Of a stretch of DNA of 64,000 bases, positions 3,898 to 30,279 are shown piece by piece. The notes under the pieces are model-generated. The model was not told the DNA's origin. It was given only the letters and a program-made list of their open reading frames with translations, and searched no databases. The stretch lies in the NCBI GenBank assembly GCA_965200925.1, contig OZ241738.1:491891-555890 (forward strand). Direction: 5' to 3'. The stretch's first letter is position 1, and every line of letters starts with the position of its first letter. Both the position numbers and the translations under genes were made by a program. This stretch comes from Alphaproteobacteria bacterium. Lineage in GTDB: Bacteria > Pseudomonadota > Alphaproteobacteria > UBA828.

Positions 3898-3964
3898 GCT
3901 GAAGGTCATGGGGTCGGGACCCAACTGCGATAAACTGTCGCCAGGGGTTCAAGCGCCACTGTCG
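3898..3964. repeat. 67-bp perfect direct repeat, left copy (putative attL core of genomic island)
   Basis: gctgaaggtcatggggtcgggacccaactgcgataaactgtcgccaggggttcaagcgccactgtcg is identical to 30213-30279. About 40 bp of weaker similarity lies immediately upstream of both copies, and both are preceded by AT-rich DNA. Confidence 0.75.
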
Positions 3965-4092
3965 ACGCTCGAGAGGCCGGTCTACGATGGCCGAGCGCGG
4001 CGGTATGGCGACGATGCCGGCGGATCGTGCGCGGGCGGAAAGCTGACAAGGCCGTCGAGTCATGTCCGCGCTTCCGCGGCGTTCGCCCCTGC

Positions 4093-5220
4093 TCAATCGA
4101 CGATGAGCCCGTGTTTGGGCAGGAGATCGCGCAGCACATAGATTCGGTGCAGTGCGGCGGCCTGATAGAAGCGCCAGATATGTGTATCCATGGCGATTCC
4201 GTAATCGTCGCCGCCGTCCAGACTTTCCCACTGCGCGTTCCAGTCCTCGCCCTCGTAATCCGGAATCGCCTCGCCGGCTTCACCGAACAGCGTGCCGGCC
4301 CGCGCAGCGTTCTGCCAAGCCTCGACACGTTCGGCTTCGTTGCCCTGGGTCAGCAGAATCTCCCGCACGCGGGGGGCGATGGCTTCGAAGTCCCGGCCGG
4401 CGCCGGTGTCGACGTCGGGCCGCAGACGGGCGAATCGCCGGAACATGTCGTGCAGGGCCCGGCACCCCGCCAGAAAGGTGACCGGGTTGTTGCGCGTGCT
4501 GCGTATCCCGGCGACCGCGTCCGGGCGCTCGTAGTCGTAACTCCAGACCAGATAGGGCCGGTCGGGCAGGGTGGCGACAGAGCCGTGCCCCAGCGCCCCC
4601 GACGCTTCTTCGGCGAGCCAGCCCTGGATGTTGGTGAGCAGGCCGCCATGCGCCCCCCGCTTCTCGAAGAACGAAGCGGCCTTCCGCGTGACATAATCCC
4701 GCATCTCGGACGACAGCTTCGCCGTCGCACCGTCTGCGCCTTCGACCTCCTCGTGAAAGCGGAAACTGCCGTTGTCGACTCTGTTGCCGCGGGAGCTGAC
4801 GCCCGAGAATCCGTAGTGCGAGAACGTGTCGGCATAGACGTGCGCGGCGATGCCCAGCAGGTGCGGCGCGAAGGCGCGATCCGCATACGTCAGATGGTGG
4901 TCGCGCATCTCCCGCGCGATCCCGCTGTCCATGCGGCACTTCAAGCGTTCCGTGTAGGTCTCGCCGACGTTGCCGGGAATGAAATGGAACGGCACCCACA
5001 CCCGGCGCTGGTCGCGGTCGTCGCGGTTGGAGAGGTCGAAGGGATGATGGGCGGTGGCTTCCGTGTCGATGCGCGACCCGTCCCGAAAGGTCACCCGGCT
5101 TCGCGCCGCGTTGTCGTCCACGAACTGGGCAGACATCGCGACGACCCGCGCCGTTTCCCGCTCCAGTCCCGCGGCGCGGGCCATGGCGTAGGCACCGTAA
5201 TAATGCATGTCGATCTGCAT
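4093..5220 (-). CDS. Hypothetical His-rich protein, possibly a metal-dependent hydrolase (Zn-PLC/S1-P1 nuclease-like fold very tentative); first gene inside the island
   Basis: Real start taken at MQIDMHYYGAYAMARAAG (ATG 5220); upstream part of ORF 4093..5382 is leader. Motifs HHPFD and HLLGIAAHVYADTFSH. Diverse amino-acid composition, unlike the overlapping antisense ORF 4027..5808. Confidence 0.45.
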   Translation of the reverse strand: MQIDMHYYGAYAMARAAGLERETARVVAMSAQFVDDNAARSRVTFRDGSRIDTEATAHHPFDLSNRDDRDQRRVWVPFHFIPGNVGETYTERLKCRMDSGIAREMRDHHLTYADRAFAPHLLGIAAHVYADTFSHYGFSGVSSRGNRVDNGSFRFHEEVEGADGATAKLSSEMRDYVTRKAASFFEKRGAHGGLLTNIQGWLAEEASGALGHGSVATLPDRPYLVWSYDYERPDAVAGIRSTRNNPVTFLAGCRALHDMFRRFARLRPDVDTGAGRDFEAIAPRVREILLTQGNEAERVEAWQNAARAGTLFGEAGEAIPDYEGEDWNAQWESLDGGDDYGIAMDTHIWRFYQAAALHRIYVLRDLLPKHGLIVD

Positions 5221-5286
5221 CGCGTTCTCCCGTCGTCGAATGCCCTTCGATATGCGGCGCCGGCGCGGGATTTCAAGGGGTTTCCT

Positions 5287-5312
5287 GTTTGCCGGCAAAC
5301 TTGCCGGCAAAC
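5287..5312. promoter_or_regulatory. Tandem palindromic operator-like site GTTTGCCGGCAAAC-TTGCCGGCAAAC in the divergent region upstream of brxA
   Basis: Perfect 14-bp palindrome followed by a second 10/12-bp copy with 12-bp periodicity. Located between the divergent hypothetical gene start (5220) and brxA start (5481). Confidence 0.4.
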
Positions 5313-5480
5313 ATATGGCCTGTCGTTGACGGAGCACCGGCGCCGTGGTAGCGACCAGCCGCCATGCACGGTCAGGCCGCATGTTCCTTTCGCCTCTCGC
5401 CGGACGCCGAGTCCCGCGCCGGGGCCGAAACGGCCGGCTTCCGCCTTGGGGCCAAAGGCACGCACACCAGCCGCACGATC

Positions 5481-6173
5481 ATGCTGGCGGAGCTGGAGGC
5501 GGTCCTGGCAGCGGCCGGTGCGGACGCCGCGCGGGCCGACTACGCGGCGGCGATCATTGAGACCAACTGTTTGTCGAAGCCTACCGCGGCGACGCGCCGG
5601 CTCTCGTGCCAGCGGCTGCGCGAGCTCCACGGGCTGGACCCGGCGCTGCCGCTGTTCCGCGTGCTCCGGCGCCTCTGGGCCTTCGATCCGGCGGGCCGCC
5701 CGCTTCTGGCCTTGCTGTCGGCGCTCGCTCGGGATCCGCTGCTTGCCGCCACCGTTCCCGCGATCGTGTCCCTGCCGCCCGGCGCCGATTTCCAGCGTGC
5801 GCCGATGAAGGCCGCGCTGCGGAGCGCCGTGGGCGAGCGCCTGAATGAGGCGGTCCTCGACAAGACCTGCCGCAACGCGGCCAGCAGCTGGACGCAATCG
5901 GGGCATCTCGAAGGGCGGACGTTCAAGAAGCGGCGGCGGGTCACGGCCTCCACGGCGGCCGTCGCCTTCGCCCTCTGGCTCGCCGGCGCCGCAGGCTGTC
6001 GCGGCGCTGGCGTCTTCGTCTCGGCGTGGCTGCGGCTGGCCGATTGCGGTCCCTCGCGGGCGCGCCGCCTGGCCCTGGAAGCGAAGCGGCTCGGCCTGAT
6101 CGACCTCCGGATGGCCGGCGATGTCGTCGAGCTCGACACGGCCCGGCTCGACCCCGCCGGAAGAGGGGTGTGA
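5481..6173 (+). CDS. brxA: BREX protein BrxA (DUF1819-like)
   Basis: First gene of a co-directional operon followed by BrxB and BrxC. Size ~230 aa; start ATG 5481 inside ORF 5364..6173. Assignment rests mainly on position and size. Confidence 0.55.
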   Translation: MLAELEAVLAAAGADAARADYAAAIIETNCLSKPTAATRRLSCQRLRELHGLDPALPLFRVLRRLWAFDPAGRPLLALLSALARDPLLAATVPAIVSLPPGADFQRAPMKAALRSAVGERLNEAVLDKTCRNAASSWTQSGHLEGRTFKKRRRVTASTAAVAFALWLAGAAGCRGAGVFVSAWLRLADCGPSRARRLALEAKRLGLIDLRMAGDVVELDTARLDPAGRGV

Positions 6174-6739
6174 CCGTGTCGCGCATCGAGGACCTCGCGG
6201 AAGCCTACGGCCGGCATATTGCGACGCCCTGGCAGCGGACGGTCGCCGGCGCCCAGCGTGTCGTGATGGTCGTCTACGACAAGGAGCAGGAGCGGATGCT
6301 GCGCGCCCGCAGGCTCGCCTTCGAGACCGCGACAAAGCGGGCCGGATACGCTTGGCTGGAGGTCGATCTGGCGCCGGCTTTCGCCGAATGGATGGCCGGC
6401 GACGAATACCGGGAGGCGTATTTCGCGACGCCCGAGGATCTGCGGCTGAAGCTCGACGCCGCGTTCCCGGACCATGTGGCCGGCCGCATCCGCGAGCGGC
6501 TGACTTCGGCGGACGCCACGGAGGCTTCCGTCGTCGCGGTCTTCGGCGCGGGCGCGCTCTTCGGCCTCGCGCGGGTCTCGCGAATCCTCGGCATGGTCGA
6601 GAGCGATATCCGCGGCCACCTCGTCCTTTTCTTCCCGGGTCAGTACGAACGGAACAACTACCGCTTGCTGGACGCGCGCGACGGCTGGAACTATCTCGCC
6701 GTGCCGATCACGCTGCGTGGCGCGGAGGAGCACGGATGA
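6170..6739 (+). CDS. brxB: BREX protein BrxB (DUF1788-like)
   Basis: ~190 aa. GTG 6170 overlaps the brxA stop (GTGA). Immediately precedes BrxC, whose ATG overlaps its stop (ATGA). Confidence 0.6.
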   Translation: MTVSRIEDLAEAYGRHIATPWQRTVAGAQRVVMVVYDKEQERMLRARRLAFETATKRAGYAWLEVDLAPAFAEWMAGDEYREAYFATPEDLRLKLDAAFPDHVAGRIRERLTSADATEASVVAVFGAGALFGLARVSRILGMVESDIRGHLVLFFPGQYERNNYRLLDARDGWNYLAVPITLRGAEEHG

Positions 6740-9700
6740 AGATCAAGGACGTCCTCCAGCGCGATCCTGCGGCGCACCCCCTCGTCAACAAGGGCCAGGC
6801 CCGGATCGCCGACCGCGAGGACGCGCAGGTGATGCGGGAGCTGCACGGCGAGCTCGCGACCTTCGTCTGCGAGGGCCAATATGCGGACGGCATCCAGAGG
6901 ATCGTCCGTTCGTTCCTCGACGATCTGGGCCGGACCAGCCAGCGCGGCGCCTGGGTCAGCGGCTTCTTCGGCAGCGGCAAGTCGCACCTCCTGAAGATGC
7001 TCTGCCACCTGTGGCGCAACACCGAATTCCCCGACGGGGCGACGGCGCGCAGCCTGGTTCCCGCGATCCCCGAAGATCTGGCCGCGCTGCTGCGCGAGCT
7101 CGACGTCGCCGCCCGGCGCGCCGGCGGCCTCATGGCCGCGGCCGGTTCGCTGCCCAGCGGCAGCACCGACCACGTGCGCCTCACCATCCTCGGGCTGCTG
7201 CTGCGCGCCGCCGGCCTGCCGGCGCAGTACCCCCAGGCCCGGTTCTGCCTGTGGCTGCACGCCGAGGGGCGCTTCGACGCCGTGAAATCCGCGGTCGAAG
7301 CGGAGGGCCGGCGCTTCGAGCGGGAGCTCAATGACCTCTATGTGAGCGGCGCGATCGCCCGCGCCGTCCTCGCCTGTGCCCCGTCCTTCGCGGCCGGCGA
7401 AGCCGAGGCCAGGCAAGCGATCAGGGCGCAATTCCCGCCCCAGGCCGCCGACATCGCGACGGCGGAGTTCCTGCGCACGGCCAAGGACGCCCTGGCGCAT
7501 GCTTCCGATAGTGAGGGCCGGGTGCCGTGCACACTCGTCGTGCTCGACGAAGTGCAGCAATATATCGGCGATTCGACCGAGCGTTCCATGCTCGTCACCG
7601 AAGTCGCGGAAGCCGTCGAAAAGCAGCTCGATAGCCACGTGATGATCGTCGGCGCGGGCCAGAGCGCGTTGACCGACGCGCCGCTCCTCCAGAAGCTGAT
7701 GGACCGCTTCACGATCCGCGTCCCGCTCTCCGACGCCGACGTGGAGACGGTCACCCGCAAGGTGCTGCTCCAGAAGAAACCCAGCGCCGTCGCCGCTCTG
7801 CGCGCGCTGCTCGAAAGGCACGGCGGCGAGATCTCGCGGCAACTCCAGGGGACCCGGCTGGGCGAGACCGCTGCGGACCGCGTGGCCCTTGCGGACGACT
7901 ACCCGCTGCTGCCGGTCCGCCGGCGTTTCTGGGACGCCTGCTTCCGCCAGATCGACGCGGCCGGCACCCACAGCCAGTTGCGTTCGCAGCTGCGCATCGT
8001 CCACGACGCCCTGGCCAGACTCTCCGACCGGCCGCTCGGCGCGGTCGTCGCCGGCGACGAACTGTTCGATGCGCTCGCGCCCGAGATGGTCAACACCGGC
8101 GTGCTGCTGCGGGAGATCAACGAACGGATCATCGAGGTCGGCGAGGCCGAAGGCGCGCTCGCGCGCCGCCTCTGCGGGCTGATCTTCCTGATCGGCAGGC
8201 TGGCGCGGGAGGCGGGAGCGGATACCGGCGTCCGGGCGACCGCAGACCACCTCGCCGATCTGGTCATCGACGATCTCGCCGCCGACAACGGCAAGCTCCG
8301 CAGCGCGGTCGAAACGACGCTCGGCAAGCTCGCCGGCAACGGCATCCTGATGCGGGTGGGCGAGGAATACCGCCTTCAGACCCGCCAGGGCGCCGAATGG
8401 GATCGGGAGTTCCGCAATCGGCAGACCCGCCTGAACAACGATTCCGCCGCGATCCAGCTTCGGCGCGACGCGCTTCTCCACGGAGAGATCGACAGGATCG
8501 TCCGCGGTCTGCGCATGGTCCAGGGGGCGGCGAAGGAACCCCGGCGCTTCGCCGTTCACCGGGGGGCGTCCCCGCCGCCCGCCGCCGACGGTTCCACGAT
8601 CCCGGTCTGGGTCCGCGACGGCTGGGCGGCGTCGGAGAAGGCGGCGGTGGAGGCGGCGCGGGCGGCGGGCGCCGCCGACCCGACGATTCACGTCTTCGTG
8701 CCCCGTCGTTCGGCGGACGATCTGCGCCGCCTGATCGTCGAGGCGGCCGCGGCCGAACAGGCGCTCGACGCGCGCGGCAACCCGACCGAGCCCGAAGGCC
8801 AGGAGGCGCGCCGGAGCATGGAGAGCCGTCGCGCCCGCGCCGAGGCCGGGCGCGACGCTCTGGTCCGCGACGTCGCCGCCAACGCCAAGGTCTTCCAGGG
8901 CGGCGGCAACGAGGTCCTTCTCGCGGCGCTGGAAGACCGCCTCCGGGCCGCCGGCGAGGACGCGCTCGCGCGCCTGTTCCCCCGCTTCAGGGAAGCCGAT
9001 GGCGCGGCGTGGCCGTCCGTCATCAAGCGTGCGCGTGACGGCGCCGACCACCCGCTCCAGCCGGTCGGGCACACGGACGCGGTGGAAAAGCACGCGGTCT
9101 GCCGGCAGGCGCTTGCCGAGATCGGCGTCGGCGCGTCCGGGGCCGCGTTGCGCAAGGCGCTGGCCGGCCCGCCCTTCGGTTGGCCGCGCGACGCCGTGGA
9201 CGCGGCGCTGATCGCGCTGCATCGCGCGCGGCATCTGTCCGCGACGCTGAACGGCGCGGCGCTCCCGCCAGGCGGGCTCGACCAGAACCGCATCGCGAAG
9301 GCGGCGTTCCGCGCCGAGCGCGCGGCCCTCTCGGTTCAGGATCGCTTGGTCCTGCGGAAGCTCTTCCAGGCCGCCGATCTTGCCTGCAAGAGTGGCGAGG
9401 AGGAAGCCCGGGCGAATGATTTCCTGGACACGCTTGCCGAACTCGCCCGTTCGGCCGGCGGTGAACCGCCGCTTCCCGTCCCGCCCGGTACGGTCGACGT
9501 CGAGGACGCGCGCCGGCTGGCCGGGAACGAACGGCTGGCGGCCATCCGCGACAAGGCCGACGAATGGGAAGGGAAGATCGCCGAGTGGCGCGCGGCGGCG
9601 AAGTCGATCGCCGCGCGTCTGCCGGCATGGCGCCTGGTCGAGCGGCTGGCGGCGCATGCCGAAGGGATCGAAGAGGCCGGGCCGCAGCGCCGCGAGGTGG

Positions 9701-10191
9701 CGGCGGTGCGCGACGGGCGGCAATTGCTGGCGGGCGCGGATCCGGCCGCCGCCATCCGCAAGGCGCTGGCGGACCTTCTCCGCGCTTCCGTCCGGGCCGG
9801 GTTCGAGGCCCTTGAGGCCGCCTTCGCCGAGGCCATGCGGACTCTCGACGCGAACGAAGCATGGCGAAAAGCCGCGCCCGCCGACCGCGAGGCGATCCTG
9901 AAAGAGGCGGGGCTGGCCGCACCGGCGAAGCCGGAGGTCGCGACCGACGAAGCCCTGGCCGACTGCCTCGACCGGCGCTCCCTTGCGGGCGTCCGCGCCG
10001 AGATCGACGCCGTCCCGGCACGCGCGGCCCGTGCCGTCGAGCGGGCGGCCCGGCTGCTGGAACCGAAGGTCCGCCCGGTCGCCCTGGAGCGGGCCACCTT
10101 GCGCGACGCCGCCGAGGTCGAGGCGTGGGCCGAGCGCCAGAAGAAGGCGCTGCTCGAAGCCGTCGCCGACGGCCCGGTGCTGGTGAATTGA
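6736..10191 (+). CDS. brxC: BREX P-loop ATPase BrxC/PglY (~1150 aa)
   Basis: MKIKDVLQRDP... N-terminus with Walker A GFFGSGKSHLLKMLCHLW. Large size and position between BrxB and PglX. Confidence 0.85.
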   Translation: MKIKDVLQRDPAAHPLVNKGQARIADREDAQVMRELHGELATFVCEGQYADGIQRIVRSFLDDLGRTSQRGAWVSGFFGSGKSHLLKMLCHLWRNTEFPDGATARSLVPAIPEDLAALLRELDVAARRAGGLMAAAGSLPSGSTDHVRLTILGLLLRAAGLPAQYPQARFCLWLHAEGRFDAVKSAVEAEGRRFERELNDLYVSGAIARAVLACAPSFAAGEAEARQAIRAQFPPQAADIATAEFLRTAKDALAHASDSEGRVPCTLVVLDEVQQYIGDSTERSMLVTEVAEAVEKQLDSHVMIVGAGQSALTDAPLLQKLMDRFTIRVPLSDADVETVTRKVLLQKKPSAVAALRALLERHGGEISRQLQGTRLGETAADRVALADDYPLLPVRRRFWDACFRQIDAAGTHSQLRSQLRIVHDALARLSDRPLGAVVAGDELFDALAPEMVNTGVLLREINERIIEVGEAEGALARRLCGLIFLIGRLAREAGADTGVRATADHLADLVIDDLAADNGKLRSAVETTLGKLAGNGILMRVGEEYRLQTRQGAEWDREFRNRQTRLNNDSAAIQLRRDALLHGEIDRIVRGLRMVQGAAKEPRRFAVHRGASPPPAADGSTIPVWVRDGWAASEKAAVEAARAAGAADPTIHVFVPRRSADDLRRLIVEAAAAEQALDARGNPTEPEGQEARRSMESRRARAEAGRDALVRDVAANAKVFQGGGNEVLLAALEDRLRAAGEDALARLFPRFREADGAAWPSVIKRARDGADHPLQPVGHTDAVEKHAVCRQALAEIGVGASGAALRKALAGPPFGWPRDAVDAALIALHRARHLSATLNGAALPPGGLDQNRIAKAAFRAERAALSVQDRLVLRKLFQAADLACKSGEEEARANDFLDTLAELARSAGGEPPLPVPPGTVDVEDARRLAGNERLAAIRDKADEWEGKIAEWRAAAKSIAARLPAWRLVERLAAHAEGIEEAGPQRREVAAVRDGRQLLAGADPAAAIRKALADLLRASVRAGFEALEAAFAEAMRTLDANEAWRKAAPADREAILKEAGLAAPAKPEVATDEALADCLDRRSLAGVRAEIDAVPARAARAVERAARLLEPKVRPVALERATLRDAAEVEAWAERQKKALLEAVADGPVLVN

Positions 10192-10203: not shown

Positions 10204-11403
10204 ATGTCCTTCATCCGCCGTATCGGCCTGCGCGGCCTGCTGTCGTTTCCGCCCGACATGGAGCCGTTCGATTTCCAGCCGCTGAACGTGCTGATCGGCC
10301 CCAACGGCTCCGGGAAGACGAACCTGATCGAGGCGCTGGAGCTTCTCCGCGCGACGCCAACGGATTTCGCCGCCGCGATCCGCGATGGCGGCGGCGCGGC
10401 GGAATGGTTGTGGAAAGGCGAGAATCCAGCGAGGGCGGCGACGGTAGACATCGAGACCGGAGACTCGACGCCATCGACCGGCCGGCCGTTGCGCTATCTT
10501 CTCCAATTCACGTCGTCGAATAGCCGGGTCGAGGTGCTCGACGAAGCGATCGAGGAAGTGAAGCCCGACATTGGACATGACGAACCGTATTTCTATTATC
10601 ACTTCCAGCAGGGACGACCGGCCATTAACGTCAAAGAGACAACGGAAGGTGGTTCTGGTGGACATGTGGAAAGGCGCCTCAAGCGAGACGACATTTTGCC
10701 GGATCAGTCTGTCCTGATGCAACGCAAGGAACCGGATCTCTACCCGGAAGTCGCTTGGATCGGGCGCATGTTCGGGCAAATCCAGACGTTCCGCGACTGG
10801 ACCTTCGGGCGTTATGCTCCATTAAGGCAGCCACAACCTGCGGATCTGCCGGAGGATCGACTGCTGCCCGATAATCGCAACTTAGCCTTGCTTCTCAATC
10901 AAGTCGAACACCGTGATCCTCGGCGGTTCAACGAACTCCTTAAGCGATTCTTCCCACGTTTTGAACGGATGTCGACCAGGATCTCCGGCGGCACGGTGCA
11001 ATTCTATCTGCATGAGTCCGGTTTCGAGTCACCGATCCCCCCGACACGGCTGTCGGATGGGACGGTGCGCTTTGTCGCTATCCTCGCGACCCTGCTGGCG
11101 CCGTCGCCGTCGCCGCTCGTATGCATTGAAGAACCGGAGCTCGGGCTGCACCCCGACGCGCTGACGCTGGTTGCCGAGCTTCTGGTAGAGGCATCCGAGC
11201 GTATGCAACTTGTGGTCACCACGCATTCGGATGCACTTGTCTCCGCGTTGACGAACCAACCGGAATCTGTCGTTGTTTGCGAGCGGCCGGGTGCGGGTAC
11301 CGTGCTGGAACGACTCGATCCCGAAAAGTTGGCGCACTGGTTGAACGAGGATTATGGGCTTGGCGACTTGTGGCGTATCGGAAAACTGGGCGCCAATCCA
11401 TGA
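10204..11403 (+). CDS. ABC-type ATPase (AAA_21/AAA_15-like; OLD/AriA/PtuA-like N-terminal ATPase), module 1
   Basis: Walker A LIGPNGSGKTNLIEALELL. Walker B/D-loop LVCIEEPELGLHPDA. H-loop VVTTHS. 399 aa. Confidence 0.75.
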   Translation: MSFIRRIGLRGLLSFPPDMEPFDFQPLNVLIGPNGSGKTNLIEALELLRATPTDFAAAIRDGGGAAEWLWKGENPARAATVDIETGDSTPSTGRPLRYLLQFTSSNSRVEVLDEAIEEVKPDIGHDEPYFYYHFQQGRPAINVKETTEGGSGGHVERRLKRDDILPDQSVLMQRKEPDLYPEVAWIGRMFGQIQTFRDWTFGRYAPLRQPQPADLPEDRLLPDNRNLALLLNQVEHRDPRRFNELLKRFFPRFERMSTRISGGTVQFYLHESGFESPIPPTRLSDGTVRFVAILATLLAPSPSPLVCIEEPELGLHPDALTLVAELLVEASERMQLVVTTHSDALVSALTNQPESVVVCERPGAGTVLERLDPEKLAHWLNEDYGLGDLWRIGKLGANP

Positions 11404-12100: not shown

Positions 12101-12132
12101 AGATGAAGTTGGGGGGAGGGGAGGAGAGATGA
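12016..12132 (+). pseudogene. pglX 5' stub (MSALSRESRRALERAVRKARAAAEAGAGK + 9 unrelated codons); insertion scar
   Basis: Translation is identical to the first 28 residues of full-length PglX at 14025. Terminates after KLGGGEER; its stop overlaps the ATPase-2 start (ATGA). Confidence 0.7.
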
Positions 12133-14002: not shown

Positions 14003-14119
14003 GCCGTCGCGGCGGGGTGAGGCGATGAGCGCGCTTTCGCGGGAATCGCGCCGGGCGCTGGAGAGGGCCGTCCGCAAGGCCCGCGCCGCCGCCGAGGCGG
14101 GTGCGGGCAAGGCGCTGGA
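14003..14119. repeat. ~117-bp direct duplication, copy B (covers the start of functional pglX)
   Basis: See copy A at 11984-12100. Confidence 0.85.
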
Positions 14120-21706: not shown

Positions 21707-24030
21707 CGACCGCCACCCTGATCGACGCGATCCGCGAGTCGATGGCCGCGAGCCTGCACGGGCCGGACGGCGCGGAACCGCCCGCCGCCCTGCTCTGGAC
21801 CGACCCGGACGGCCAGTGGCGGCCGCTGATCCCCGCGCTCATGAAGGCGCTGCCAGAACTCTACGCCCTCGGCGCCTACGCGCCCGCGGAACGGCGCGGA
21901 CCGGTCATCTGGCTCAAATGCGTCGTCGAACGGACCCTGCCCGACGCGGCGCCGGAAGTGGGCGCGACGCCGGTCCTCTACCTGCCCGAGGTGGGGCGCC
22001 AGACGCTGCGGGCCGCCGACGATTGCGACGCCACGCTCCAGCCGCTGGTCGAGCTGCAATATCGCGGCGCCGTCTGGCATCAGCGCAACGGCCGCGACTG
22101 GACGGTCGAGGCGTTCCTCGCTTCCGACGACGCGCTCGGGCTCGACGTGGCGCGCGACGCGGCGACCCGCGCCGCCGCGTTGCGCGCCCTGCCCTTGCTG
22201 GCGGCGGAGCCGGTCGCGACGCTGCGCGGCCGCCGGCTCGAGGCGGAGGATTTCGACCGCCTGTCGATCGGCGATCCGATCCGCGATCTGTTGACCTGGA
22301 TGAGCGACGCCGCGGCGTTCGAGGCGGACTGCGACCCGGACCGCTGGGCGGCGTTTCGCGACGTCTGCGCGCGCGAATTCGCGTTCGACCCGGAGACGGA
22401 CGGCCTCCGCGCCGCCGCGGACACGCTGGCCGCGGGCGGCGGCAAGTGGAACGAGGCTTGGCGGCGTTTCTGCGATGTGCCGCTGCTTTACCCCGGTATT
22501 CCCGCCGTTCTGCGCACGGCGCGGCCCAAGGACCTGTTGCACCCGGTCGAACCGTCCCGCCGGCCGGGCCTGAACGAGGAGCGGGAAGACCGGCTTCGCG
22601 CGGCGCTGGAAGCGGCCGCCGGGCTTCCCCACGCCGACGCCTGCGACAGGGTCGCGGCGCTGGACGACGAACACAGGGAACGCCGCGGCTGGGTGTGGGC
22701 ACAGCTCGGCGAGAGCCCCTGCGCGTTGGCGCTGGAGCCGCTCGGCCGCCTCGCCCGCGCGGCGAAGCGCGAGGCGGAGGCCGCCTCGGCCGAAGCGCTG
22801 GCCGCGGACTACGCCACGCAAGGGTGGCGCTGCGACCGGGCGGCGATCGAGGCGCTGGCCTGCCCCAAACCCGGCGCCGGACACGGTCTCGTCACCAGCG
22901 TCGTGCGGGCGCTGTACGAACCGTGGCTCGACCGCGCGGCGCGGCGCTTCCAGAGCCTGCTTTCCGCCGGGCATCCCGATCCGGGCGCGTTGACGAGCGG
23001 CGTCGACGCCGAACCCGGGGTCTGCATCCTCTTCGCCGACGGGCTGCGCTTCGATCTCGGGGCCATGCTGGGCGAGCGGCTGGAGGCGCGCGGCGTCCGG
23101 GTGCGGCTCGGGCATCGCATGGCGCCGATCCCGACCGTGACCGCCACTGCGAAGCCGCTGGCTTCCCCCGCCCATGCGGCCTGTGCCGGCGCGGCGAGCG
23201 CGGAGGATTTCTGCCCCGCGGTTGCCGGCGCCGGCAAGCCGGCGACCGCCGCGCGGCTTCGCGCCCTCATGGTGCGGCAGGGCATCGCGATTCCGGAGGC
23301 CGGCGAAATACCCATGGCGCTCGACGGCGGCGCCGGCGCCTGGATGGAAACGGGAAAGATCGACACGCTCGGCCATTCCCTGGACGCCGCACTCGCCCGC
23401 CAGATCGACGCGGAGATCGACGCCATCGCCGACCGTGTCGATGCGCTTCTCGCGGCCGGCTGGCGCAAGGTCCGGGTCGTGACCGATCACGGCTGGTTGC
23501 TGCTTGCGGGCGGATTGCCGCGGGTCGATCTGCCGCCGTCGTTGGTCGAAACCAAATGGTCCCGCTGCGCCGCCGTTCGAGGCGAGTCGGAACCCGTCGT
23601 TCCCACCTACCCGTGGCACTGGGACCCGTCGCTGCGGATCGCCTCGCCGCCGGGAATCGGCGCCTTCCGTGCCGGCACGGAATACGCCCACGGCGGCGTC
23701 AGTCCCCAGGAATGCGTCGTGCCCGATTTGCTCGCGGAGCGCGACGCGGCCGTCGCCGCCGCGCGGATAACGAGCGTGGTCTGGCGTGGGATGCGCTGCC
23801 GGATCGCCGTCGAGACCGGCGCGCCGGGGGCGAAAGTCGACCTGCGGCTCAACCGCAGGCAGGCCGAATCCAGCATCGCCGCCGCGGTCCGGGCGCTGAA
23901 CGATGCCGGCGAGGCGAGCCTCGTCGTTCCCGACGACGAGCACGAAGGCGCCGCGGCCCTGGTCGTGGTTCTGGACGAAGCGGGGCGGGTGCTCGACGAC
24001 CGCCCGACCACCGTCGGCGACGGAGGGTGA
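21703..24030 (+). CDS. pglZ: BREX alkaline-phosphatase-superfamily protein PglZ (~775 aa)
   Basis: N-terminus LIDAIRESMAASLHGPDG...LLWTDPDGQW. PglZ-domain motif VVTDHGWLLL. Position before brxL. Start GTG 21703 (alternative ATG 21742). Confidence 0.85.
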   Translation: MTTATLIDAIRESMAASLHGPDGAEPPAALLWTDPDGQWRPLIPALMKALPELYALGAYAPAERRGPVIWLKCVVERTLPDAAPEVGATPVLYLPEVGRQTLRAADDCDATLQPLVELQYRGAVWHQRNGRDWTVEAFLASDDALGLDVARDAATRAAALRALPLLAAEPVATLRGRRLEAEDFDRLSIGDPIRDLLTWMSDAAAFEADCDPDRWAAFRDVCAREFAFDPETDGLRAAADTLAAGGGKWNEAWRRFCDVPLLYPGIPAVLRTARPKDLLHPVEPSRRPGLNEEREDRLRAALEAAAGLPHADACDRVAALDDEHRERRGWVWAQLGESPCALALEPLGRLARAAKREAEAASAEALAADYATQGWRCDRAAIEALACPKPGAGHGLVTSVVRALYEPWLDRAARRFQSLLSAGHPDPGALTSGVDAEPGVCILFADGLRFDLGAMLGERLEARGVRVRLGHRMAPIPTVTATAKPLASPAHAACAGAASAEDFCPAVAGAGKPATAARLRALMVRQGIAIPEAGEIPMALDGGAGAWMETGKIDTLGHSLDAALARQIDAEIDAIADRVDALLAAGWRKVRVVTDHGWLLLAGGLPRVDLPPSLVETKWSRCAAVRGESEPVVPTYPWHWDPSLRIASPPGIGAFRAGTEYAHGGVSPQECVVPDLLAERDAAVAAARITSVVWRGMRCRIAVETGAPGAKVDLRLNRRQAESSIAAAVRALNDAGEASLVVPDDEHEGAAALVVVLDEAGRVLDDRPTTVGDGG

Positions 24031-24032: not shown

Positions 24033-26081
24033 ATGGAACTCGACCGTCTGGACGAACTGGCCGCCGCCGCCTTCGATGGCTACCTGGTGCGCAAGGATCT
24101 GGTCCGCAGATACGCGCGCCAGTACCCGGTGCCGACCTACGTCGTCGAATTCCTCCTCGGGCGCTACTGCGCGAGCGTCGACGAGGCGGAGATCGAAGAA
24201 GGGCTGCGCATCGTCGAACGGTTGCTGAAGGACCGGACCGTCCGCACCGGCGACGAGGAGCTGTTCAAGGCGCGGGCGCGGGAGAACGGGTCGATCCGCC
24301 TCATCGATCTGGTCAAGGCGCGGCTGGACGCGCGCAACGATTGCTATGTCGCCGAACTGCCCAGCCTGAATCTGCGCCACGTCCGCATCGACGACGAACT
24401 CGTCGGCGACAACGAGCGCATGCTGACCGACGGCTTCTATGCCGAGGTCACGCTCGGCTACGACGGCGTCATCGCTCAGGAGAAGGATGGGCGGCCTTTC
24501 AAGGCGGAGGCACTGCGGCCGATCCAGATGTCGAAGCCGGATGTGCTCGACGTCTACGCCGGCGCGCGGCGCGGGTTCGCGACCGGCGAGTGGATCGATT
24601 TCCTGCTGCGCTCCGTCGGCCTGGAGCCGGCGGCGTTCGACGAGCGCGCGAAGCGGGTGGCGCTGCTGCGCATGGTCCCGTTCGTGGAGCGGAACTACAA
24701 TCTGGTGGAGCTCGGGCCGCGCGGGACCGGCAAGAGCCATCTCTTCCAGCAGATATCGCCCTACGCGCATCTGGTTTCCGGCGGCAAGGCGACCGTCGCC
24801 AAGATGTTCGTCAACAACGCCAACGGCCAGCGCGGCCTGGTCTGCCGCTACGACGTGGTCTGCTTCGACGAGGTCGCCGGCATCTCCTTCGACCAGAAGG
24901 ACGGCGTCGGCATCATGAAGGGCTACATGGCCTCGGGCCAGTTCAGCCGCGGCAAGGAGAACATCCGTGCCGACGGCAGCTTGGTGATGGTCGGCAACCT
25001 GGATGCCGACATCGAGCAGCAGCAGCGGATCGGCCATCTGTTGCGCCCGCTACCGCCCGAGATGCGGGACGACACCGCGTTCATGGACCGCCTGCATGCG
25101 TTCGCGCCGGGCTGGGACTACCCGAAGCTCGCGCCGGGTGCGCATCTGACCGACCATTTCGGCCTCGTCAGCGATTTCCTCAGCGAGTGCTGGAGCCGGC
25201 TGCGCAGCGGCAACCGCGTCTCTGCGATGCAGAGCCGGGTGCATCTGGGCGGCGCGTTGAGCGGGCGCGACATCGAGGCGGTCAACAAGACCGTCGGCGG
25301 CCTCATCAAGCTGCTGTTCCCGGACCCGGACATGCCGGTCGCCGACGACGATCTCGAATGGACCGTGCGGCTGGCCCTGGAAGCGCGCCGCCGCGTCAAG
25401 GAACAGCAGAAGCGCGTCTTCAAGAGCGAGTTCCGCAACACCCATTTCAGCTACATCCTGGGTACGGAGGGCGTCGAGCGGTTCGTGGCGACGCCGGAGC
25501 TGCACAGCGACGAGGCGATCGACAGCGACCCGTTGCCGCCGGGGCAGGTCTGGGGCGTCGGCGCCGGGTCGGGCGGCGCCGGGGCCGGCCTCTACCGCAT
25601 CGACGTCACCTGCGGTCCGGGCGGCGGCGTGCGCATCCTGAACCAGCCGACTCCGCCCGCGTTCCGAGAGAGCGTGCGGGTGGGCGAACAGAACCTGTAT
25701 GCGCGGGCAAAGCAGCTGGTCGGCGACCGCAACCCGCGCGAGGACGAGTTCACGGTCCAGATGCGTCCCATGGACGCCACCATGTCGGGCGAGGGGCTGG
25801 GGGTGCCGGTGCTGGTCGCCCTCTGCGGGGCCCTGCTCGGCCGCAACACCCGCGGCGGCGCCATCGTCGCCGGGGCGCTCAATCTCGGCGGCTCGATCGA
25901 GCCGGTCCCGAACGCGGCGCGGGTCGCGGAGCTCGCCGTCGACAAGCAGGCCCAGACGCTGCTGATGCCCGTCTCCGCGCGCCGGCAGCTCGACGACTTG
26001 CCCGACGATCTGTGGACCAGGATCAACATCGAGTTCTACAAGGACGGCCCCGACGGCGTATTCAAGGCGCTGATGGAGTGA
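24033..26081 (+). CDS. brxL: BREX Lon-like protease BrxL (~682 aa)
   Basis: MELDRLDELAAAAFDGYLVRKDLVRRYARQYPVPTYVVEFLLGRYC N-terminus. AAA+ Walker A GPRGTGKSHLFQQISPYA. Lon-like C-terminus. Last gene of the operon. Confidence 0.85.
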   Translation: MELDRLDELAAAAFDGYLVRKDLVRRYARQYPVPTYVVEFLLGRYCASVDEAEIEEGLRIVERLLKDRTVRTGDEELFKARARENGSIRLIDLVKARLDARNDCYVAELPSLNLRHVRIDDELVGDNERMLTDGFYAEVTLGYDGVIAQEKDGRPFKAEALRPIQMSKPDVLDVYAGARRGFATGEWIDFLLRSVGLEPAAFDERAKRVALLRMVPFVERNYNLVELGPRGTGKSHLFQQISPYAHLVSGGKATVAKMFVNNANGQRGLVCRYDVVCFDEVAGISFDQKDGVGIMKGYMASGQFSRGKENIRADGSLVMVGNLDADIEQQQRIGHLLRPLPPEMRDDTAFMDRLHAFAPGWDYPKLAPGAHLTDHFGLVSDFLSECWSRLRSGNRVSAMQSRVHLGGALSGRDIEAVNKTVGGLIKLLFPDPDMPVADDDLEWTVRLALEARRRVKEQQKRVFKSEFRNTHFSYILGTEGVERFVATPELHSDEAIDSDPLPPGQVWGVGAGSGGAGAGLYRIDVTCGPGGGVRILNQPTPPAFRESVRVGEQNLYARAKQLVGDRNPREDEFTVQMRPMDATMSGEGLGVPVLVALCGALLGRNTRGGAIVAGALNLGGSIEPVPNAARVAELAVDKQAQTLLMPVSARRQLDDLPDDLWTRINIEFYKDGPDGVFKALME

Positions 26082-26127: not shown

Positions 26128-26568
26128 CTACGCGGCCCGCGTCGCCACCACCAGCCGCTGTCCGAGGGCGTGAAGCGCCGCCTCGATATGGCCGATGTGC
26201 GACCGGTGGTCGAGGTCGAGCAGGCACCGCACCGTCCCCTCCACGGTCCCCAATCGCTTGGCCAGCGCGGCGTTGCCGAGCCCGCGCTCGCGCATCGCGC
26301 GGTAGAGAGCGATCTCGGCGGCGACCAGTGCGGGCAGCGCGACAAGCGGACGTCCCCTTCCCGGCGACGGCAGCGGAATGTCGCGGCGGGCTTCGATGTA
26401 TCCACCGAGCGCGGCGACGAGGCAGTCCTCCGCCTCCGCCAGCGCCTCCCGCTCCATGGCGCCTTCCGTCAAGGCTTCCGGGACGTCGGGAAACGACGCC
26501 AGCACGGACCCCCCTTCCTCCGCCTCGAGCCTGACGGGATACGCCAACCGCATCGACCGTATCGTCAT
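26128..26568 (-). CDS. hicB: Type II antitoxin HicB family
   Basis: MTIRSMRLAYPVRLEAEEGGSVLASFPDVPEALTEGAMEREALAEAEDCLVAAL matches HicB N-domain consensus. C-terminal DNA-binding tail. SD caggag upstream of ATG 26568. Confidence 0.7.
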   Translation of the reverse strand: MTIRSMRLAYPVRLEAEEGGSVLASFPDVPEALTEGAMEREALAEAEDCLVAALGGYIEARRDIPLPSPGRGRPLVALPALVAAEIALYRAMRERGLGNAALAKRLGTVEGTVRCLLDLDHRSHIGHIEAALHALGQRLVVATRAA

Positions 26569-26620
26569 GGTTTTCTCCTGAGTCCCCGGAGGTCCTCTCG
26601 GGACAGCCCGAGTTGCCGGA

Positions 26621-26797
26621 TCATGGCCGCGAGGAGGCCTTGGCCGATTTCCTTGAAGCGGTCCTTGACCGTGATGAAACGATCCCCATAACGCAGACGG
26701 CCATGACTTCCCTTGCCCGTTCGGGATTCGAAGCGCACCGCGACGCCCGTTCCCGACCGAGCCTTCGGACGCGCCTGACGAACTCGTCACCGGTCAT
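26621..26797 (-). pseudogene. Possible decayed hicA toxin remnant (frameshifted; GSH motif replaced by GSV)
   Basis: MTGDEFVRRVRRLG in one frame. HicA-like ...EGSVGNGRRGALRIPNGQGKSW only in the adjacent frame, fused to the hicB leader. No intact HicA ORF. Confidence 0.25.
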
Positions 26798-27125: not shown

Positions 27126-28310
27126 CTACACCATCGAACGGTCCGGCACGCTCAACGCTCCGGCCACGCTGCCCTGCGGGCTGGCGTTCATCGGGTCAGG
27201 ACGCCTCCGGGCCACGGCAAGCACGGCCACCGGCAAGCTCCACCCGGCCGACTGCTCGTCGCGCAACACCCGCTACACCCTGGTCGCAACGGATGTGGAC
27301 GGCGACCGCGCAACCCTGGACTTCGTTCTTGCGGTTGGCAGCGAGCTCACCTTCGGCGACGTCACCGGGCCGACCCTGACGGTCCGCATTGGTCATCTCG
27401 TCGAGGTCGAGTTGCCGGGTGCAGAAGGAGGCGACGGGCGGGTGGACTACAGCCTGGGCACCACGCCGGCGCTGCCGGACGGGTTGAGGTTTCTGCGTTC
27501 CCGCCGAGGATCGAACGCCAAGCAGTCCCACACCCTATGGAGCACGCCGACCGGGGCGCATCCGCGCACCACCTATACGCTCACCACCACGGGCCGCGAC
27601 GGCGACGCCGCGACACGGAACTCCACCATCCAGGCGACGACGAACCGCACCCCGTCGTTCGCTGCCTCATCCACCCGTGCCCGGCGCTTCACGGTTGGTC
27701 AGGTGGCTAGCGACCGTTTGCCGGGCGCCACCGGCGGCAATGGGTCGCTCACCTACACGATCGACCCGGCCTTGCCGCACGACCTGTCGCTGAACGGGAC
27801 CACCATCACCGGCGCGGCCACGGAAGCCAGGGCCGAGACCAGCGACACGCTGGCGGCGAGCGATGCAGACGGCGACGCGGCCACGCTAACCTTCCGGCTG
27901 GCGGTGGCGAGCGCGACCGCACCGAAGATCTCCGATGCGGCCGTCACCTCGACACTGTCGCGCGGCGGCGACACCTACGCCATGGGCGATGCGATCACTG
28001 TGCGGATCGACTTCGACCGGCTGGTCGCGGTCGGCGGCTCGCCCCGACTCGGCATCGGCACGGCCACGCGCTACGCCATGCTTTCCACCAGGGCGCCGCC
28101 GGGGCCGGGCCTGCGGTCAGCGAGCTCGGCTACCGGCACCGGGGGCGCGACCGCTTCGGGCGGCGGTGCGATCGCCGGCACGCCGACCGGTGAGCAGGCC
28201 GCGGCCACCTACACGCCGAGGGCGACGGATGCCGACGGCGACGAGACGGCCGACGACGCGGCGACGCACCCCTTCACCATCGAGGCCGCCAGGCGGGCGC
28301 AGGTGCGCTC
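27098..28310 (+). pseudogene. Fragment of a large repetitive surface protein (putative-Ig/cadherin-like He_PIG-type repeats), no start or signal peptide, ends in nonsense
   Basis: Repeats of the form LPxGLxF...tG..tYTLxATDxDGDxATLxF (three recognisable copies). Begins at the junction with the integrase fragment. Decayed repeat 2. Downstream part of ORF 26959..28569 is low-complexity. Confidence 0.4.
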
Positions 28311-28318
28311 GGTGGAGA

Positions 28319-29066
28319 TCAGCCCGATGTGGGCCGAAGGGGGTGCGCCGCTGCGGCTTTGGCCAGAAGAAACCCGACCAGATCCGAGACGTTCACCTCG
28401 GCGCTACGGTCGATGCCCTCGATCCGGGCGTTCAGCTCGCGTACTTCCATGTCGCGGGCCGCGAAACCGGTGCTGCGGAGATTCAAAGCTCCCAGGTTCT
28501 CGCACGCATCGAACGCGATCGTCGCCTCCGCCGGTTCGCTGTGGAAATCGTCCAACAGCTCGAACTTGACGACCGCTGCGCAGGAAGCCTTGCCCGCGAC
28601 CCAACGCCAGGACCGTCCATCCTCGGGGACAAACCCGGTATCGCGGAGCGCTTCCTCGAGGCGGGCCGCATTCACCGCCCCGCATGCGATTTCGAGATCG
28701 ACCTGTGCGTCTACGTTCGGTTGTCCCGGCGTGATGGAACGCGCTTTCGGCGCAAAGCAGTTCCGGGACCAACCCTCCGAGCACCACGAATTCCGGCCGT
28801 TGCCCGTAGTGGTGGACAATACGCGATAGCGCTGCTTCCGCCGCCGCCCGGGAACGGGGAGGCGGTTCGCTGACCACGGACAATCTCTCGGAGATGCTCG
28901 ACGGCTTCCTCGCCGCGCACGCCCACGGCGCGCAGGTCTGCATACACGCGGGGCCATGGGGCGACGCGCAGGCCGGCTTGCGCGGCCACGGATTCGATCC
29001 CGGCGACCGTTGCCCTGGCGACATAGACCTCGCGATCGTAACCGCAGCAAGGTAGGGAGCAAGCAT
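28319..29066 (-). pseudogene. Frameshifted nucleotidyltransferase-fold protein (AbiEii/GSU2403-like family tentative)
   Basis: Upstream part (EFVVLGGLVPELLCAESAFHHAG) lies in ORF 28404..29066. Downstream part (NVDAQVDLEIACGAVNAARLEEAL...) lies in ORF 28319..29149, a different frame. Confidence 0.25.
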
Positions 29067-29222
29067 CGACGCTGCGATGGTGCCCGTGACTGCTCATGCG
29101 ATGCCCGCGGTATCCCACCGACGGCCGATCTCACATAGTCCCGCCGCAAAGTCGCGCCACGTCACGCCGACCGTGATGGCGGTCGCCGGCGTCGTCGCCG
29201 GGATCGGCGAGAAGCACGGGCG

Positions 29223-29420
29223 GTGATCCTGGCCGATACCGGCCCGCTGGTCGCGCTGTTCGATCCTGCTGACGGCAGCCACGGGCGATGCGTCGAAACC
29301 CTCGCAGCGATCGAAGAGCCGACCGCGACGACCGTCCCCGTCCTGACGGAAGCCTTCCCTCTGTTGGGGCCGGCGAGCGTCGGCGCGCAACGGCTCATGG
29401 ATTTCGTCGTCGACGGCGGT
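29223..29420 (+). pseudogene. PIN-domain (VapC-like) toxin N-terminal fragment
   Basis: (V)ILADTGPLVALFDPADGSHGRCVETLAAIEEPTATTVPVLTEAFPLLG is PIN N-terminal consensus. Reading degenerates after ~65 aa into Arg/Pro-rich sequence. No recognisable VapB upstream. Confidence 0.35.
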
Positions 29421-29879
29421 CTGCGAGGTTCTCCATCTCGACGATCCGGGCCTCGACCGCACCGACTTCGCCGTCTACCGCATCAAGCGCGGCACCGGCA
29501 CGCGGCGTTCCGCGTGATCGGGTAGCCTTCATGTGCGGTCGCTTCACGCAGATGGCGCTATCACATCACCAATGCGGACAACATCGAGCCGAACGGACTG
29601 CGTCCGAAGTGCCGTATGACTGATGTCACGGGCTACTCCATCGGCAAGGCGTATGCGCCACCCTTCGGTTGAGACGATGCTCGCGGCAAGAAACCACGCC
29701 GATTGGCGCGCATGTTCGTCGAGCATTTTCCCTGAATAGCCGAAGACGGAGAAGGAGGAAACCAAGCCTATGCGGGCTGGTTTACCGGAATACTGGCCGT
29801 GGCCGAGAAAGGTCGATTACCGGTTTTCTTCGGAGATTACGAGATCGATTTATCGAGCCTTTCGGTGTCACCGTTGTAG

Positions 29880-30210
29880 TCAATAAGTCCTGAGACAATG
29901 GTATAGATACTAAACCCTGCTTCCACATTTTACAAACGATAGTTATTTATTTTTCCGACAGTTACCAATATCCATACAACTATCCAAAGACCAAAAGTAA
30001 GTACGAATAGAAGAAGATGTAATATATGATTCGGCTTTTGGCCTGTTGCCAGCACTCTTTCATTGCAATGGGAGCAAAACCTGCTCGTTTGTTTTTGACT
30101 CATTCGCCTCCACCTCTAAACAATCATAGATATCCTGCAACCTGGTAGGGACACTCGCGCCACGCATGCTCTACTTGGGACGTTGAGGACGCCAGCTTCA
30201 TTGCCTGTAT
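29880..30210. other. AT-rich (~35-40% GC) non-coding block just inside the right island boundary
   Basis: Read directly; no ORFs in the track; strongly contrasts with ~70% GC flanks. Confidence 0.8.
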
Positions 30211-30212
30211 CG

Positions 30213-30279
30213 GCTGAAGGTCATGGGGTCGGGACCCAACTGCGATAAACTGTCGCCAGGGGTTCAAGCGCCACTGTCG
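30213..30279. repeat. 67-bp perfect direct repeat, right copy (putative attR core)
   Basis: Identical to 3898-3964. Confidence 0.75.

Follow-up and report, generated by a model that had tools for sequence, protein, structure and literature searches.

Results and discussion

Gene content of the locus

The window, a stretch of 64 kb of DNA from an uncultured high-GC alphaproteobacterium, contains an island of 26.3 kb between two direct repeats of 67 bp (Table 1). A hypothetical gene, the BREX operon, hicB and a truncated integrase had been predicted between the repeats, and these were recovered as a DUF6765 gene, a complete type 1 BREX system, HicB together with HicA, and an integrase fragment of 83 amino acids, the latter followed by a decayed right-hand module. 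The six BREX genes brxA, brxB, brxC, pglX, pglZ and brxL lie in one locus and presented six of six full-length PADLOC matches. HicB and HicA matched only weakly to Pfam, while the hicB orthologue in the conspecific contig L001 had a HicB-like_2 match. A close relative of the island was not present in plasmid and phage collections.

Accessory defence genes nested in type 1 BREX loci are known, e.g., BrxU in pEFER as cited in a preprint (bioRxiv 10.1101/2024.01.29.577857). Like these, the locus has the complete set brxA-brxB-brxC-pglX-pglZ-brxL, with ABC-ATPase/TOPRIM-like HEC-01 cassettes and other genes nested between the core genes. It differs in a tandem of two different HEC-01 cassettes with the duplicated pglX 5' end at both borders, in the pair of a 925-aa ATPase and a Schlafen gene between pglX and pglZ, in a heptapeptide repeat array in PglX and in the linked DUF6765 gene. 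The second, HEC-01-like cassette is bracketed by a 116-nt repeat (11987-12102 and 13996-14111, repeat family D2); it was present in the conspecific strain scaffold_54 and absent from scaffold_240. The array in pglX is an in-frame tandem repeat of 21 bp in 8.9 copies at 14391-14577, found by TRF and in the translation. The cassette hotspot between the duplicated pglX 5' ends, the PglX repeat array and the linkage of the DUF6765 gene to BREX are each better leads for further work than the repeats at the island ends.

Table 1 Features of the BREX island and its attachment sites; positions refer to the window
Feature	Position	Strand	Evidence
B arm, chromosomal side left of core	3860..3897	+	identical to L003 left of core; partly similar to P arm
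attL core, left 67-bp copy	3898..3964	+	exact match; lone copy between the same flanks in empty-site contigs
P' arm, island-specific, right of attL	3965..4012	+	absent from related DUF6765-BREX module in L092/L093
DUF6765 gene, leftmost in island, divergent from brxA	4093..5220	-	
brxA	5364..6173	+	PADLOC BrxA, E 3.9e-92
brxB	6176..6739	+	PADLOC BrxB, E 8.7e-74
brxC	6736..10191	+	PADLOC BrxC-PglY, full-length match, 1393 bits
HEC-01 cassette 1 (ABC ATPase AAA_21 + DUF4276), embedded	10204..12011	+	Pfam; PADLOC HEC-01A E 6.8e-154, HEC-01B E 4.6e-69
HEC-01-like cassette 2 (AAA_21 + DUF4276), embedded	12129..13969	+	Pfam
pglX (BREX methyltransferase)	14022..17735	+	PADLOC PglX, 1377 bits
925-aa ABC-ATPase-like gene, embedded	17717..20494	+	PADLOC Ppl E 9.8e-32, C-terminal part only; Pfam AAA_21
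Schlafen/AlbA_2 + HATPase_c_4 gene, embedded	20504..21706	+	Pfam PF04326, PF13749
pglZ	21703..24030	+	PADLOC PglZ, E 1.7e-271
brxL	24033..26081	+	PADLOC BrxL, E 1.7e-285; Pfam BrxL_N, BrxL_ATPase
hicB (26128-26571) and hicA (26565-26738)	26128..26738	-	weak Pfam matches HicB_lk_antitox, HicA_toxin
P4-type tyrosine integrase C-terminal remnant, 83 aa	26874..27125	-	PF00589 profile positions 112-169 of 172
Decayed right-hand module, ORFs without family assignment, then AT-rich stretch (29801-30100)	27126..30184	.	no Pfam matches; GC profile
57-aa membrane-like ORF within decayed module	29930..30103	-	
P arm, island side left of attR	30185..30212	+	diverged B-arm homologue; alignments A1, A3, A6
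attR core, right 67-bp copy	30213..30279	+	exact match; runs into right flank common to empty-site contigs

To the right of the island lie an isochorismatase gene, a metallophosphatase gene and a kdsB-like CTP_transf_3 gene, to the left glycosyltransferase genes. The original prediction had taken both sides as ordinary chromosome. The gene identities agreed on both sides, but the left glycosyltransferase flank is probably itself accessory, as judged from a second related integrase remnant, a low GC content and a gene order that differs in the nearest species. Another feature that offers a better lead than the repeats is the poly-C tract of the adjacent glycosyltransferase gene. Exact database look-ups of the glycosyltransferase, DUF6765 (two alternative starts), BrxB and P0001 proteins of the window gave no entry.

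The direct repeats and the target site

Exactly two copies of the 67-mer are present in the window, both on the plus strand and without a mismatch. A third copy was not found in the window even with three mismatches allowed, 100 shuffles gave no match, and a sensitive blastn-short comparison of both junctions with the window gave no additional partial copy of more than 15 nt. Without gaps the repeat reaches 90 nt at 91 % identity (3882-3971 versus 30197-30286). The diverged similarity of about 40 bp noticed upstream of each copy was real: once an indel of 10 bp is allowed, the B arm aligns with the P arm to about 3860 and 30185, respectively. The P arm is conserved in scaffold_240, scaffold_54 and L005. 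The homology of the related DUF6765-BREX module in L092/L093 begins only at position 4013. AT-rich DNA precedes both copies as predicted, the GC content being 0.49 at 3801-3900 and 0.32-0.47 at 29801-30100, compared with about 0.72 in the whole window. The description as perfect repeats holds for this strain (67 of 67 positions) and not elsewhere, attL and attR being identical at 66 of 67 positions in scaffold_240 and at 63 of 67 in scaffold_54.

The target site is intergenic, between a divergent glycosyltransferase gene and the isochorismatase operon. No obvious tRNA target had been expected, and ARAGORN indeed detected no tRNA or tmRNA gene in the window and no Rfam family was present at the repeat. 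In the fetched loci every core copy sits at this single locus. A 26-nt sub-pattern of the core had no match in 185,579 species-representative genomes (GTDB) or in JGI metagenomes, and thus revealed neither an attP nor another host or extra copies. Arm-type repeat motifs in the reconstructed attP did not exceed chance. The two nearest species show no conservation of the core, while a motif of the right flank upstream of the isochorismatase gene is conserved and not interrupted by the island. A consensus scan of the empty site for promoters and terminators gave nothing. A surrogate promoter supplied by the P arm was considered and dropped: the conserved blocks are spaced 10 bp differently, and the upstream motif with actual conservation is part of the right flank, which the island does not interrupt.

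Empty, occupied and deleted alleles

The comparison covered metagenome contigs of conspecific strains, with scaffold_240 comprising L001 and L091 and scaffold_54 comprising L002 and L175. Unoccupied sites in relatives had been proposed as the decisive check, and three contigs (L003, L004 and L006) presented clean empty sites in which the left flank passes through one repeat copy into the right flank. In L003 (ENA ERZ25070167) both flanks are colinear with the window, from the start of the glycosyltransferase gene on the left to the isochorismatase gene on the right, with a single 67-mer (L003:9858-9924) between them, and the isochorismatase protein is identical; L004 and L006 represent two more empty-site alleles. 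Scaffold_240 and scaffold_54 are occupied by the same island at the orthologous locus with the same junctions, and L005 carries an island remnant with an internal deletion. Between strains the island is 97.6-99.5 % and the flanks are 97.6-98.7 % identical; this equal divergence indicates that the insertion and the loss of the integrase are old.

The core is polymorphic: scaffold_54 has A4/GG19-20 in attL and G4/AA19-20 in attR, and the empty allele of L006 has A4/AA19-20. This pattern possibly represents a single reciprocal crossover between positions 5 and 18 of the core. L006 as a recent excisant of scaffold_54 is unsupported, the right flanks differing at 45 sites in 4.8 kb; the matrix of single nucleotide polymorphisms in the right flank is mosaic, and the strains form a mosaic, recombining population.

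Integrase remnant and decayed module

An integrase surviving only as a C-terminal fragment had been predicted, and the domain match bears this out. The fragment corresponds to the last ~80 residues of a protein of ~400 amino acids, is 60-75 % identical to the C-termini of integrases at prophage ends (e.g., those of 401 aa) and has neither the box I arginine region nor the N-terminal domains. Its nucleotide homology ends at about 27112. The remnant is 3.1 kb away from attR and adjoins no att site. L001 and L002 carry the same remnant, and no occupied strain has a functional integrase. A search of IMG/VR with the fragment retrieved only generic prophage integrases, with no att sequence in common. 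A related intact element with the same core, an attP junction or a circular form was not found in the genome and metagenome core scans and the relatives compared, and the island has no recognisable excision functions. The right-hand module is colinear in L001 and L002 and partly deleted in L005. A PIN-like fragment (29223-29525), a frameshifted nucleotidyltransferase-like gene (28.3-29.1 kb) and Ig-like repeats (27-28.5 kb) read by eye in this region had no Pfam support and are not claimed.

Origin of the insertion

Direct repeats and an empty site establish a discrete insertion bounded by the repeats. The prediction of attL and attR from a site-specific integration is supported, but the observation does not distinguish a recombinase from RecA-dependent homologous recombination across about 110 bp. 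The 67-mer could instead be a repetitive or regulatory sequence scattered over the genome (REP-like, sRNA or riboswitch) that occurs twice by chance, with no discrete insertion, but this reading is effectively refuted by the empty-site contigs. A nested hairpin can form on the plus strand (-25 kcal/mol, z = -1.9), which would suit such an element, but this value is marginal and vanishes with the flanks added; the absence of an Rfam match, the two copies in 64 kb, the lack of the 26-nt sub-pattern in public genome and metagenome collections and the missing conservation in the nearest species speak against it as well. A transposon or IS-bounded element is unlikely: the ends show no more inverted similarity than shuffles, the duplication has 67 bp and the island gave no match to a transposase domain.

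Campbell-type integration would need no dedicated integrase, as circular or incoming DNA with about 110 bp of similarity may enter by a single RecA-dependent crossover. An identity of 67 bp suffices for RecA-dependent exchange, and single-crossover integration and deletion would give the same repeats and empty sites, the latter as never-occupied alleles or as deletions between the repeats. The persistence of a presence/absence polymorphism among strains that have no functional integrase, the recombining population and the reconstructed attP devoid of arm-site motifs fit this route. We nevertheless consider it improbable, since the island contains a remnant of a phage/P4-type integrase, since integrase att sites typically show a sharp block of identity bordered by diverged homology at one edge, and since the exchange interval in scaffold_54 fits a fixed crossover, though weakly.

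It is likely that the island was integrated by a P4-type tyrosine integrase through recombination of attP with attB and has been immobilised since. We infer a circular form whose attP would have shared about 110 bp with the chromosomal site, 67 bp identical and ~40 bp diverged. The island-encoded integrase would have recombined it with attB, and the reciprocal exchange would have duplicated the shared sequence into attL and attR, with the strand exchange possibly between core positions 5 and 18 if the allele pattern of scaffold_54 is taken as a guide. Afterwards the integrase lost its N-terminal ~80 % and the neighbouring module decayed before the sampled strains diverged, leaving an element that is no longer self-mobile and whose present, absent and internally deleted forms coexist in the population. 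If attP carries a copy of the target, a block of identity should pass into diverged homology at one edge but not at the other, and in its sequence the locus is consistent with this. Against the integrase route stand the missing intact recombinase and arm-type motifs, the position of the remnant 3.1 kb from attR, and the searches that gave no attP junction, circular form or intact relative with this core; the core polymorphisms could also reflect ordinary homologous recombination, given the mosaic right flank.

With islands and prophages of P4-type (DUF4102-class) integrases the element shares terminal direct repeats, a single-copy empty site in conspecifics, an integrase of the same family inside, AT-rich island ends and accessory defence cargo. 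It differs in its intergenic target; integration at tRNA or tmRNA 3' ends is typical of these integrases, but not obligatory. It also has no recognisable excision functions, and its recombinase remnant does not adjoin an att site. As the recombinase is reduced to the C-terminal fragment, the element is at best a decayed former member of this group. In target-restoring integration, as by phage 21 and e14 at icd or with the restoration of tRNA 3' ends, attP carries an extended homologue of the target. The junction at which identity is followed by diverged homology, P arm against B arm, resembles this; unlike there, no gene or RNA is demonstrably restored, the conserved motif upstream of the isochorismatase gene being part of the right flank, which is left intact.

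Tandem accretion at a hotspot would refine the integrase-based integration. The glycosyltransferase cluster would be an older related island, whose right end (old P arm and core) became the attB of the BREX island, and this would account for the resemblance of the B arm to the P arm. We regard this as a tentative and rather doubtful proposal. In its favour, the second integrase remnant lies left of the glycosyltransferase cluster in empty and occupied strains, has 81 % nucleotide identity to that of the island, is fused to VapB/PIN genes and adjoins a gene for a HigA-like protein of 1360 aa. The GC content is 0.60-0.66 at 2-4 kb of the window against about 0.72, and in the two nearest species the isochorismatase gene neighbours GSDH-MR_MLE-RsmB instead of glycosyltransferases. 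The core is not conserved in these species while the right-flank motif is, but at 70 % protein identity an alignment of intergenic DNA is not to be expected anyway. Within the 10 kb readable to the left there is no further core copy, and the arm similarity is short, about 40 bp. Searches aimed at the left boundary of this older island ended short of it: with the GSDH orthologue of L011 the family proved too conserved and the species was not among the best 120 matches, and the N-terminal 584 aa of the HigA-like protein did not retrieve the full-length protein.

Significance

The island is a genuine but ordinary integrated element that is now immobile. The site upstream of the isochorismatase operon is unlikely, though conceivable, as a recurrent landing pad in a multi-layer phage-resistance switch region, where an older island made the attB and the related BREX island was stacked on it. 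The older island would comprise the glycosyltransferase cluster, the second integrase remnant, VapBC and the giant HigA-like gene. Neither island would keep an integrase, yet the 67-bp repeats would still generate presence/absence variation of BREX, to which a phase-variable glycosyltransferase, swappable HEC-01 cassettes and a variable PglX would add further layers. The locus leaves the current understanding unchallenged; its main use is in annotation and in studying the turnover of defence islands at the population level. With its empty, occupied and deleted alleles at an intergenic attachment site instead of a tRNA gene, it is a cleanly delimited case of a complete BREX system that an uncultured alphaproteobacterium gains and loses as a unit within its natural population.

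The direct repeats and the empty site

The two copies of the 67-bp core, in attL and attR, matched without a mismatch. No third copy was detected in the 64-kb window with up to three mismatches allowed (shuffled sequences gave 0 matches), and a sensitive search of the window found no partial copies. Ungapped, the repeat reaches 90 nt at 91 % identity. A diverged similarity runs about 40 bp farther to the left and includes a 10-bp indel (B arm against P arm); rightward of the core, the two copies diverge in a few bases. Both are preceded by AT-rich DNA with a GC content of 0.49 at 3801-3900 and 0.32-0.47 at 29801-30100, at a window mean of about 0.72. Every detail of the repeat in the original prediction was thus confirmed: the exact pair, the diverged upstream stretch, the AT-rich lead-in and the restriction to two copies in the window. 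Its statement that the target is not obviously a tRNA gene also held, as ARAGORN located no tRNA or tmRNA in the window and no Rfam family matched at the repeat. The sole Rfam match in the window was a bacterial small SRP RNA (RF00169, 60 bits) upstream of dnaX-ybaB-recR, which is ordinary and unrelated to the island.

An exact-protein look-up of the isochorismatase retrieved 17 metagenome contigs, which must belong to the same species as the window, judged by the identical protein. The contig L003 (ENA ERZ25070167) is colinear with the window. Its glycosyltransferase gene and the 107-bp left flank shared with the window lead to a single 67-mer (L003:9858-9924), after which come the shared right flank and the isochorismatase gene, with about 98.6 % identity to the window on both sides of the site. 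Two more contigs, L004 and L006, have the empty site in a slightly different allele. The unoccupied attB that the original prediction had proposed to seek in relatives was hence found in three contigs. In two other scaffolds, scaffold_240 (L001 and L091) and scaffold_54 (L002 and L175), the island occupies this site, with the junctions seen in the window. In L005 (ENA ERZ23495605 scaffold_4172; 1-1400), window positions 4440-5518, comprising the DUF6765 gene and the first ~50 codons of brxA, are joined via 118 bp of unrelated sequence to 29873 onward, and 29927-30066 are also absent. This contig is a remnant with an internal deletion that has removed the whole BREX system; DUF6765 and attR are kept. 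Several short contigs terminate in the repeat or just upstream, as a metagenome assembly would be expected to do at a repeat or a polymorphic junction.

The nearest species found were two uncultured Alphaproteobacteria (MAGs; isochorismatase identities of 73 % and 69 %), and the core is not conserved in either. Conserved in all three species is a motif 8-50 bp right of the core, GGGTTGCGGC-N-GGGC-N-TGGGCCACGGTGC (window 30287-30330, L011:5920-5953 and the equivalent in L012), situated ~30-70 bp upstream of the isochorismatase start in intergenic regions that are otherwise unalignable. Its role may be that of a promoter or operator. Since it lies to the right of the core, the likely regulatory region of the isochorismatase operon remains attached after insertion.

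Features of the island and its surroundings, positions in the window
Feature	Coordinates	Strand	Remarks
Glycosyltransferase gene	3119-3790	minus	beside the att site
B arm	3860-3897		chromosomal side, left of attL core
attL core	3898-3964
P' arm	3965-4012		island-specific, right of attL core
DUF6765 gene	4093-5220	minus	leftmost island gene
brxA, brxB, brxC			right of DUF6765 gene; PADLOC full-length
Two different ABC-ATPase + DUF4276 cassettes			between brxC and pglX; PADLOC HEC-01
pglX	14022-17735		right of HEC-01 cassettes; PADLOC full-length
925-aa ATPase gene, then Schlafen/AlbA_2 gene	17717-21706		between pglX and pglZ
pglZ, brxL			right of Schlafen/AlbA_2 gene; PADLOC full-length
hicB, hicA			right of brxL
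Integrase fragment ORF, 83 aa			right of hicB/hicA; Pfam Phage_integrase profile positions 112-169 of 172 only
Right-hand module			~3 kb of ORFs without family assignment, then AT-rich end
P arm	30185-30212		island side, left of attR core
attR core	30213-30279
Isochorismatase gene	30356-30931
SRP RNA	36198-36289

Cargo of the island

PADLOC matched all six type 1 BREX genes over their full length, which makes the system look complete. The brxC-pglX junction (10204-14111) is a hotspot for cassettes. Two different HEC-01 cassettes (ABC ATPase and DUF4276) lie there in the window and in scaffold_54. In scaffold_240 there is a single one, 73 % identical in nucleotide sequence to window copy 1; L092, an 88 %-related locus, has one cassette together with a DUF559 gene. 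A 116-nt repeat of 97 % identity (11987-12102 and 13996-14111), holding the first ~30 codons of pglX, brackets the second cassette of the window; at the same place L092 has a 152-bp repeat in two copies. The N-terminal region of PglX contains an [ATGDRPL]n array, encoded by an in-frame 21-bp tandem repeat in pglX (14391-14577; 8.9 copies, 98 % identity). The repeat is lacking in the pglX of L092, and scaffold_240 has an assembly gap (a run of N) within the same array. Positions 16165-16753 of pglX (GC content 0.57) were unalignable between the window and scaffold_240, the remaining gene being 92-97 % identical; this mismatch may reflect an exchange of the specificity-determining region. The 925-aa ABC-ATPase-like gene (partial PADLOC Ppl match) and the Schlafen/AlbA_2 gene, which also encodes HATPase_c_4, have a GC content of ~0.62-0.64, below that of the BREX core genes.

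In its nested extra genes, the BREX locus corresponds to the 'embedded' defence genes described recently in bioRxiv 10.1101/2024.01.29.577857; HEC-01 gave no protection in the assays of that study. Another organism carries a DUF6765-brxABC-HEC-01-pglX module akin to that of the island (87 % nucleotide identity, window 4013 to 10556) without the core or the 48-bp P' arm, so the cargo and attachment modules have separate histories. Plasmid and phage collections held no close relatives of the island.

The left flank

The original prediction regarded the left flank as ordinary chromosomal genes; the synteny of relatives, a low GC content and a second integrase remnant speak against this. In both nearest species the isochorismatase gene is preceded by a GSDH dehydrogenase, itself preceded by an MR_MLE enzyme and RsmB. 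The present species has a glycosyltransferase/methyltransferase cluster at this position (GC content 0.60-0.66). A second tyrosine-integrase remnant adjoins the cluster ~6.7 kb left of attB (L003:2533-3093, minus strand; L091:18128-18799, plus strand), with 81 % nucleotide identity to the island's own remnant at 26880-27111. It is truncated at both ends and fused in frame to VapB-like antitoxin sequence; a PIN gene and a gene for a 1360-aa HigA-like HTH protein come next. As this remnant occurs in empty and occupied strains alike, the left flank is probably an older accessory region. The likeness of B arm and P arm suggests that the BREX island may have inserted at the right-hand end of an older, related island, a tandem accretion.

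The glycosyltransferase gene beside the att site contains a poly-C tract (poly-G on the coding strand) at 3153-3164. In the window, L003 (L003:9114), L091 and L175 the tract lengths are 12, 11, 9 and 10 and the predicted products 223, 249, 222 and 298 aa, where a homopolymer error is possible in L003, a low-coverage long-read contig. The gene looks like a phase-variable surface glycosyltransferase.

Origin and state of the island

The integrated-island reading of the repeats as attL and attR was supported and is strengthened by the empty-site alleles. Classical integrase-mediated recombination is the best explanation and a likely one: the island's integrase would have recombined its attP with the chromosomal attB, and the recombination module would have decayed afterwards. 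The precise insertion bounded by repeats, the phage-type integrase remnant inside the element and the lack of terminal inverted repeats or a transposase in the island support this model, and the junction architecture, an identity block with diverged homology on one side only, fits an attP bearing a copy of the target. As originally predicted, the integrase survives only as a C-terminal fragment. The 83-aa fragment shares 60-75 % identity with the C-termini of integrases at IMG/VR prophage ends, one of them 401 aa long (L099), and nucleotide homology to prophage integrase genes ends at ~27112; by these matches, about the final fifth of a P4-type tyrosine integrase is left in the island. The searches found no intact recombinase in the island, no attP junction and no intact relative sharing the core, and in the reconstructed attP no arm-type repeats above chance. 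A RecA-dependent single crossover across the ~110 bp of similarity, with no dedicated integrase, would leave an identical footprint, and RecA-dependent deletion between the 67-bp repeats would restore the exact empty site; we consider this route unlikely. That the 67-mer is a dispersed repeat or a structured RNA is effectively excluded: a 26-nt core sub-pattern was unmatched in 185,579 representative genomes and in JGI metagenomes, and besides the lack of an Rfam match the fold z-score was marginal (-1.9), an effect that vanished once flanks were added.

The repeats described as perfect are so in the strain of the window, but over the 67 positions scaffold_240 shows 1 difference between attL and attR, and scaffold_54 shows 4. 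In scaffold_54 the attL core has A at position 4 and GG at 19-20, the attR core G and AA, while the empty allele of L006 and L004 has A and AA. This pattern fits a single reciprocal exchange between core positions 5 and 18. The localisation is suggestive only, because the SNP matrix of the right flank (4.8 kb) is mosaic, as in a recombining population, and L006 is not especially near scaffold_54.

Overall, the island is an ordinary biological object of a known kind, and the side observations are more unusual. It belongs to the well-known integrase/att-type genomic islands with defence-system cargo. Unlike the textbook examples, which use a tRNA gene, it uses an intergenic target, and it is immobilised, which the original prediction had held probable and to which the integrase stump points. 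Compared with the other occupied strains, the window has 97.6-99.5 % identity in the island and 97.6-98.7 % in the flanks, and all occupied strains compared are colinear over the decayed right-hand module, stump included. Since island and flanks have diverged alike and all share the stump, the island was inserted and lost its integrase before the sampled strains diverged, and it has since been inherited with the chromosome.
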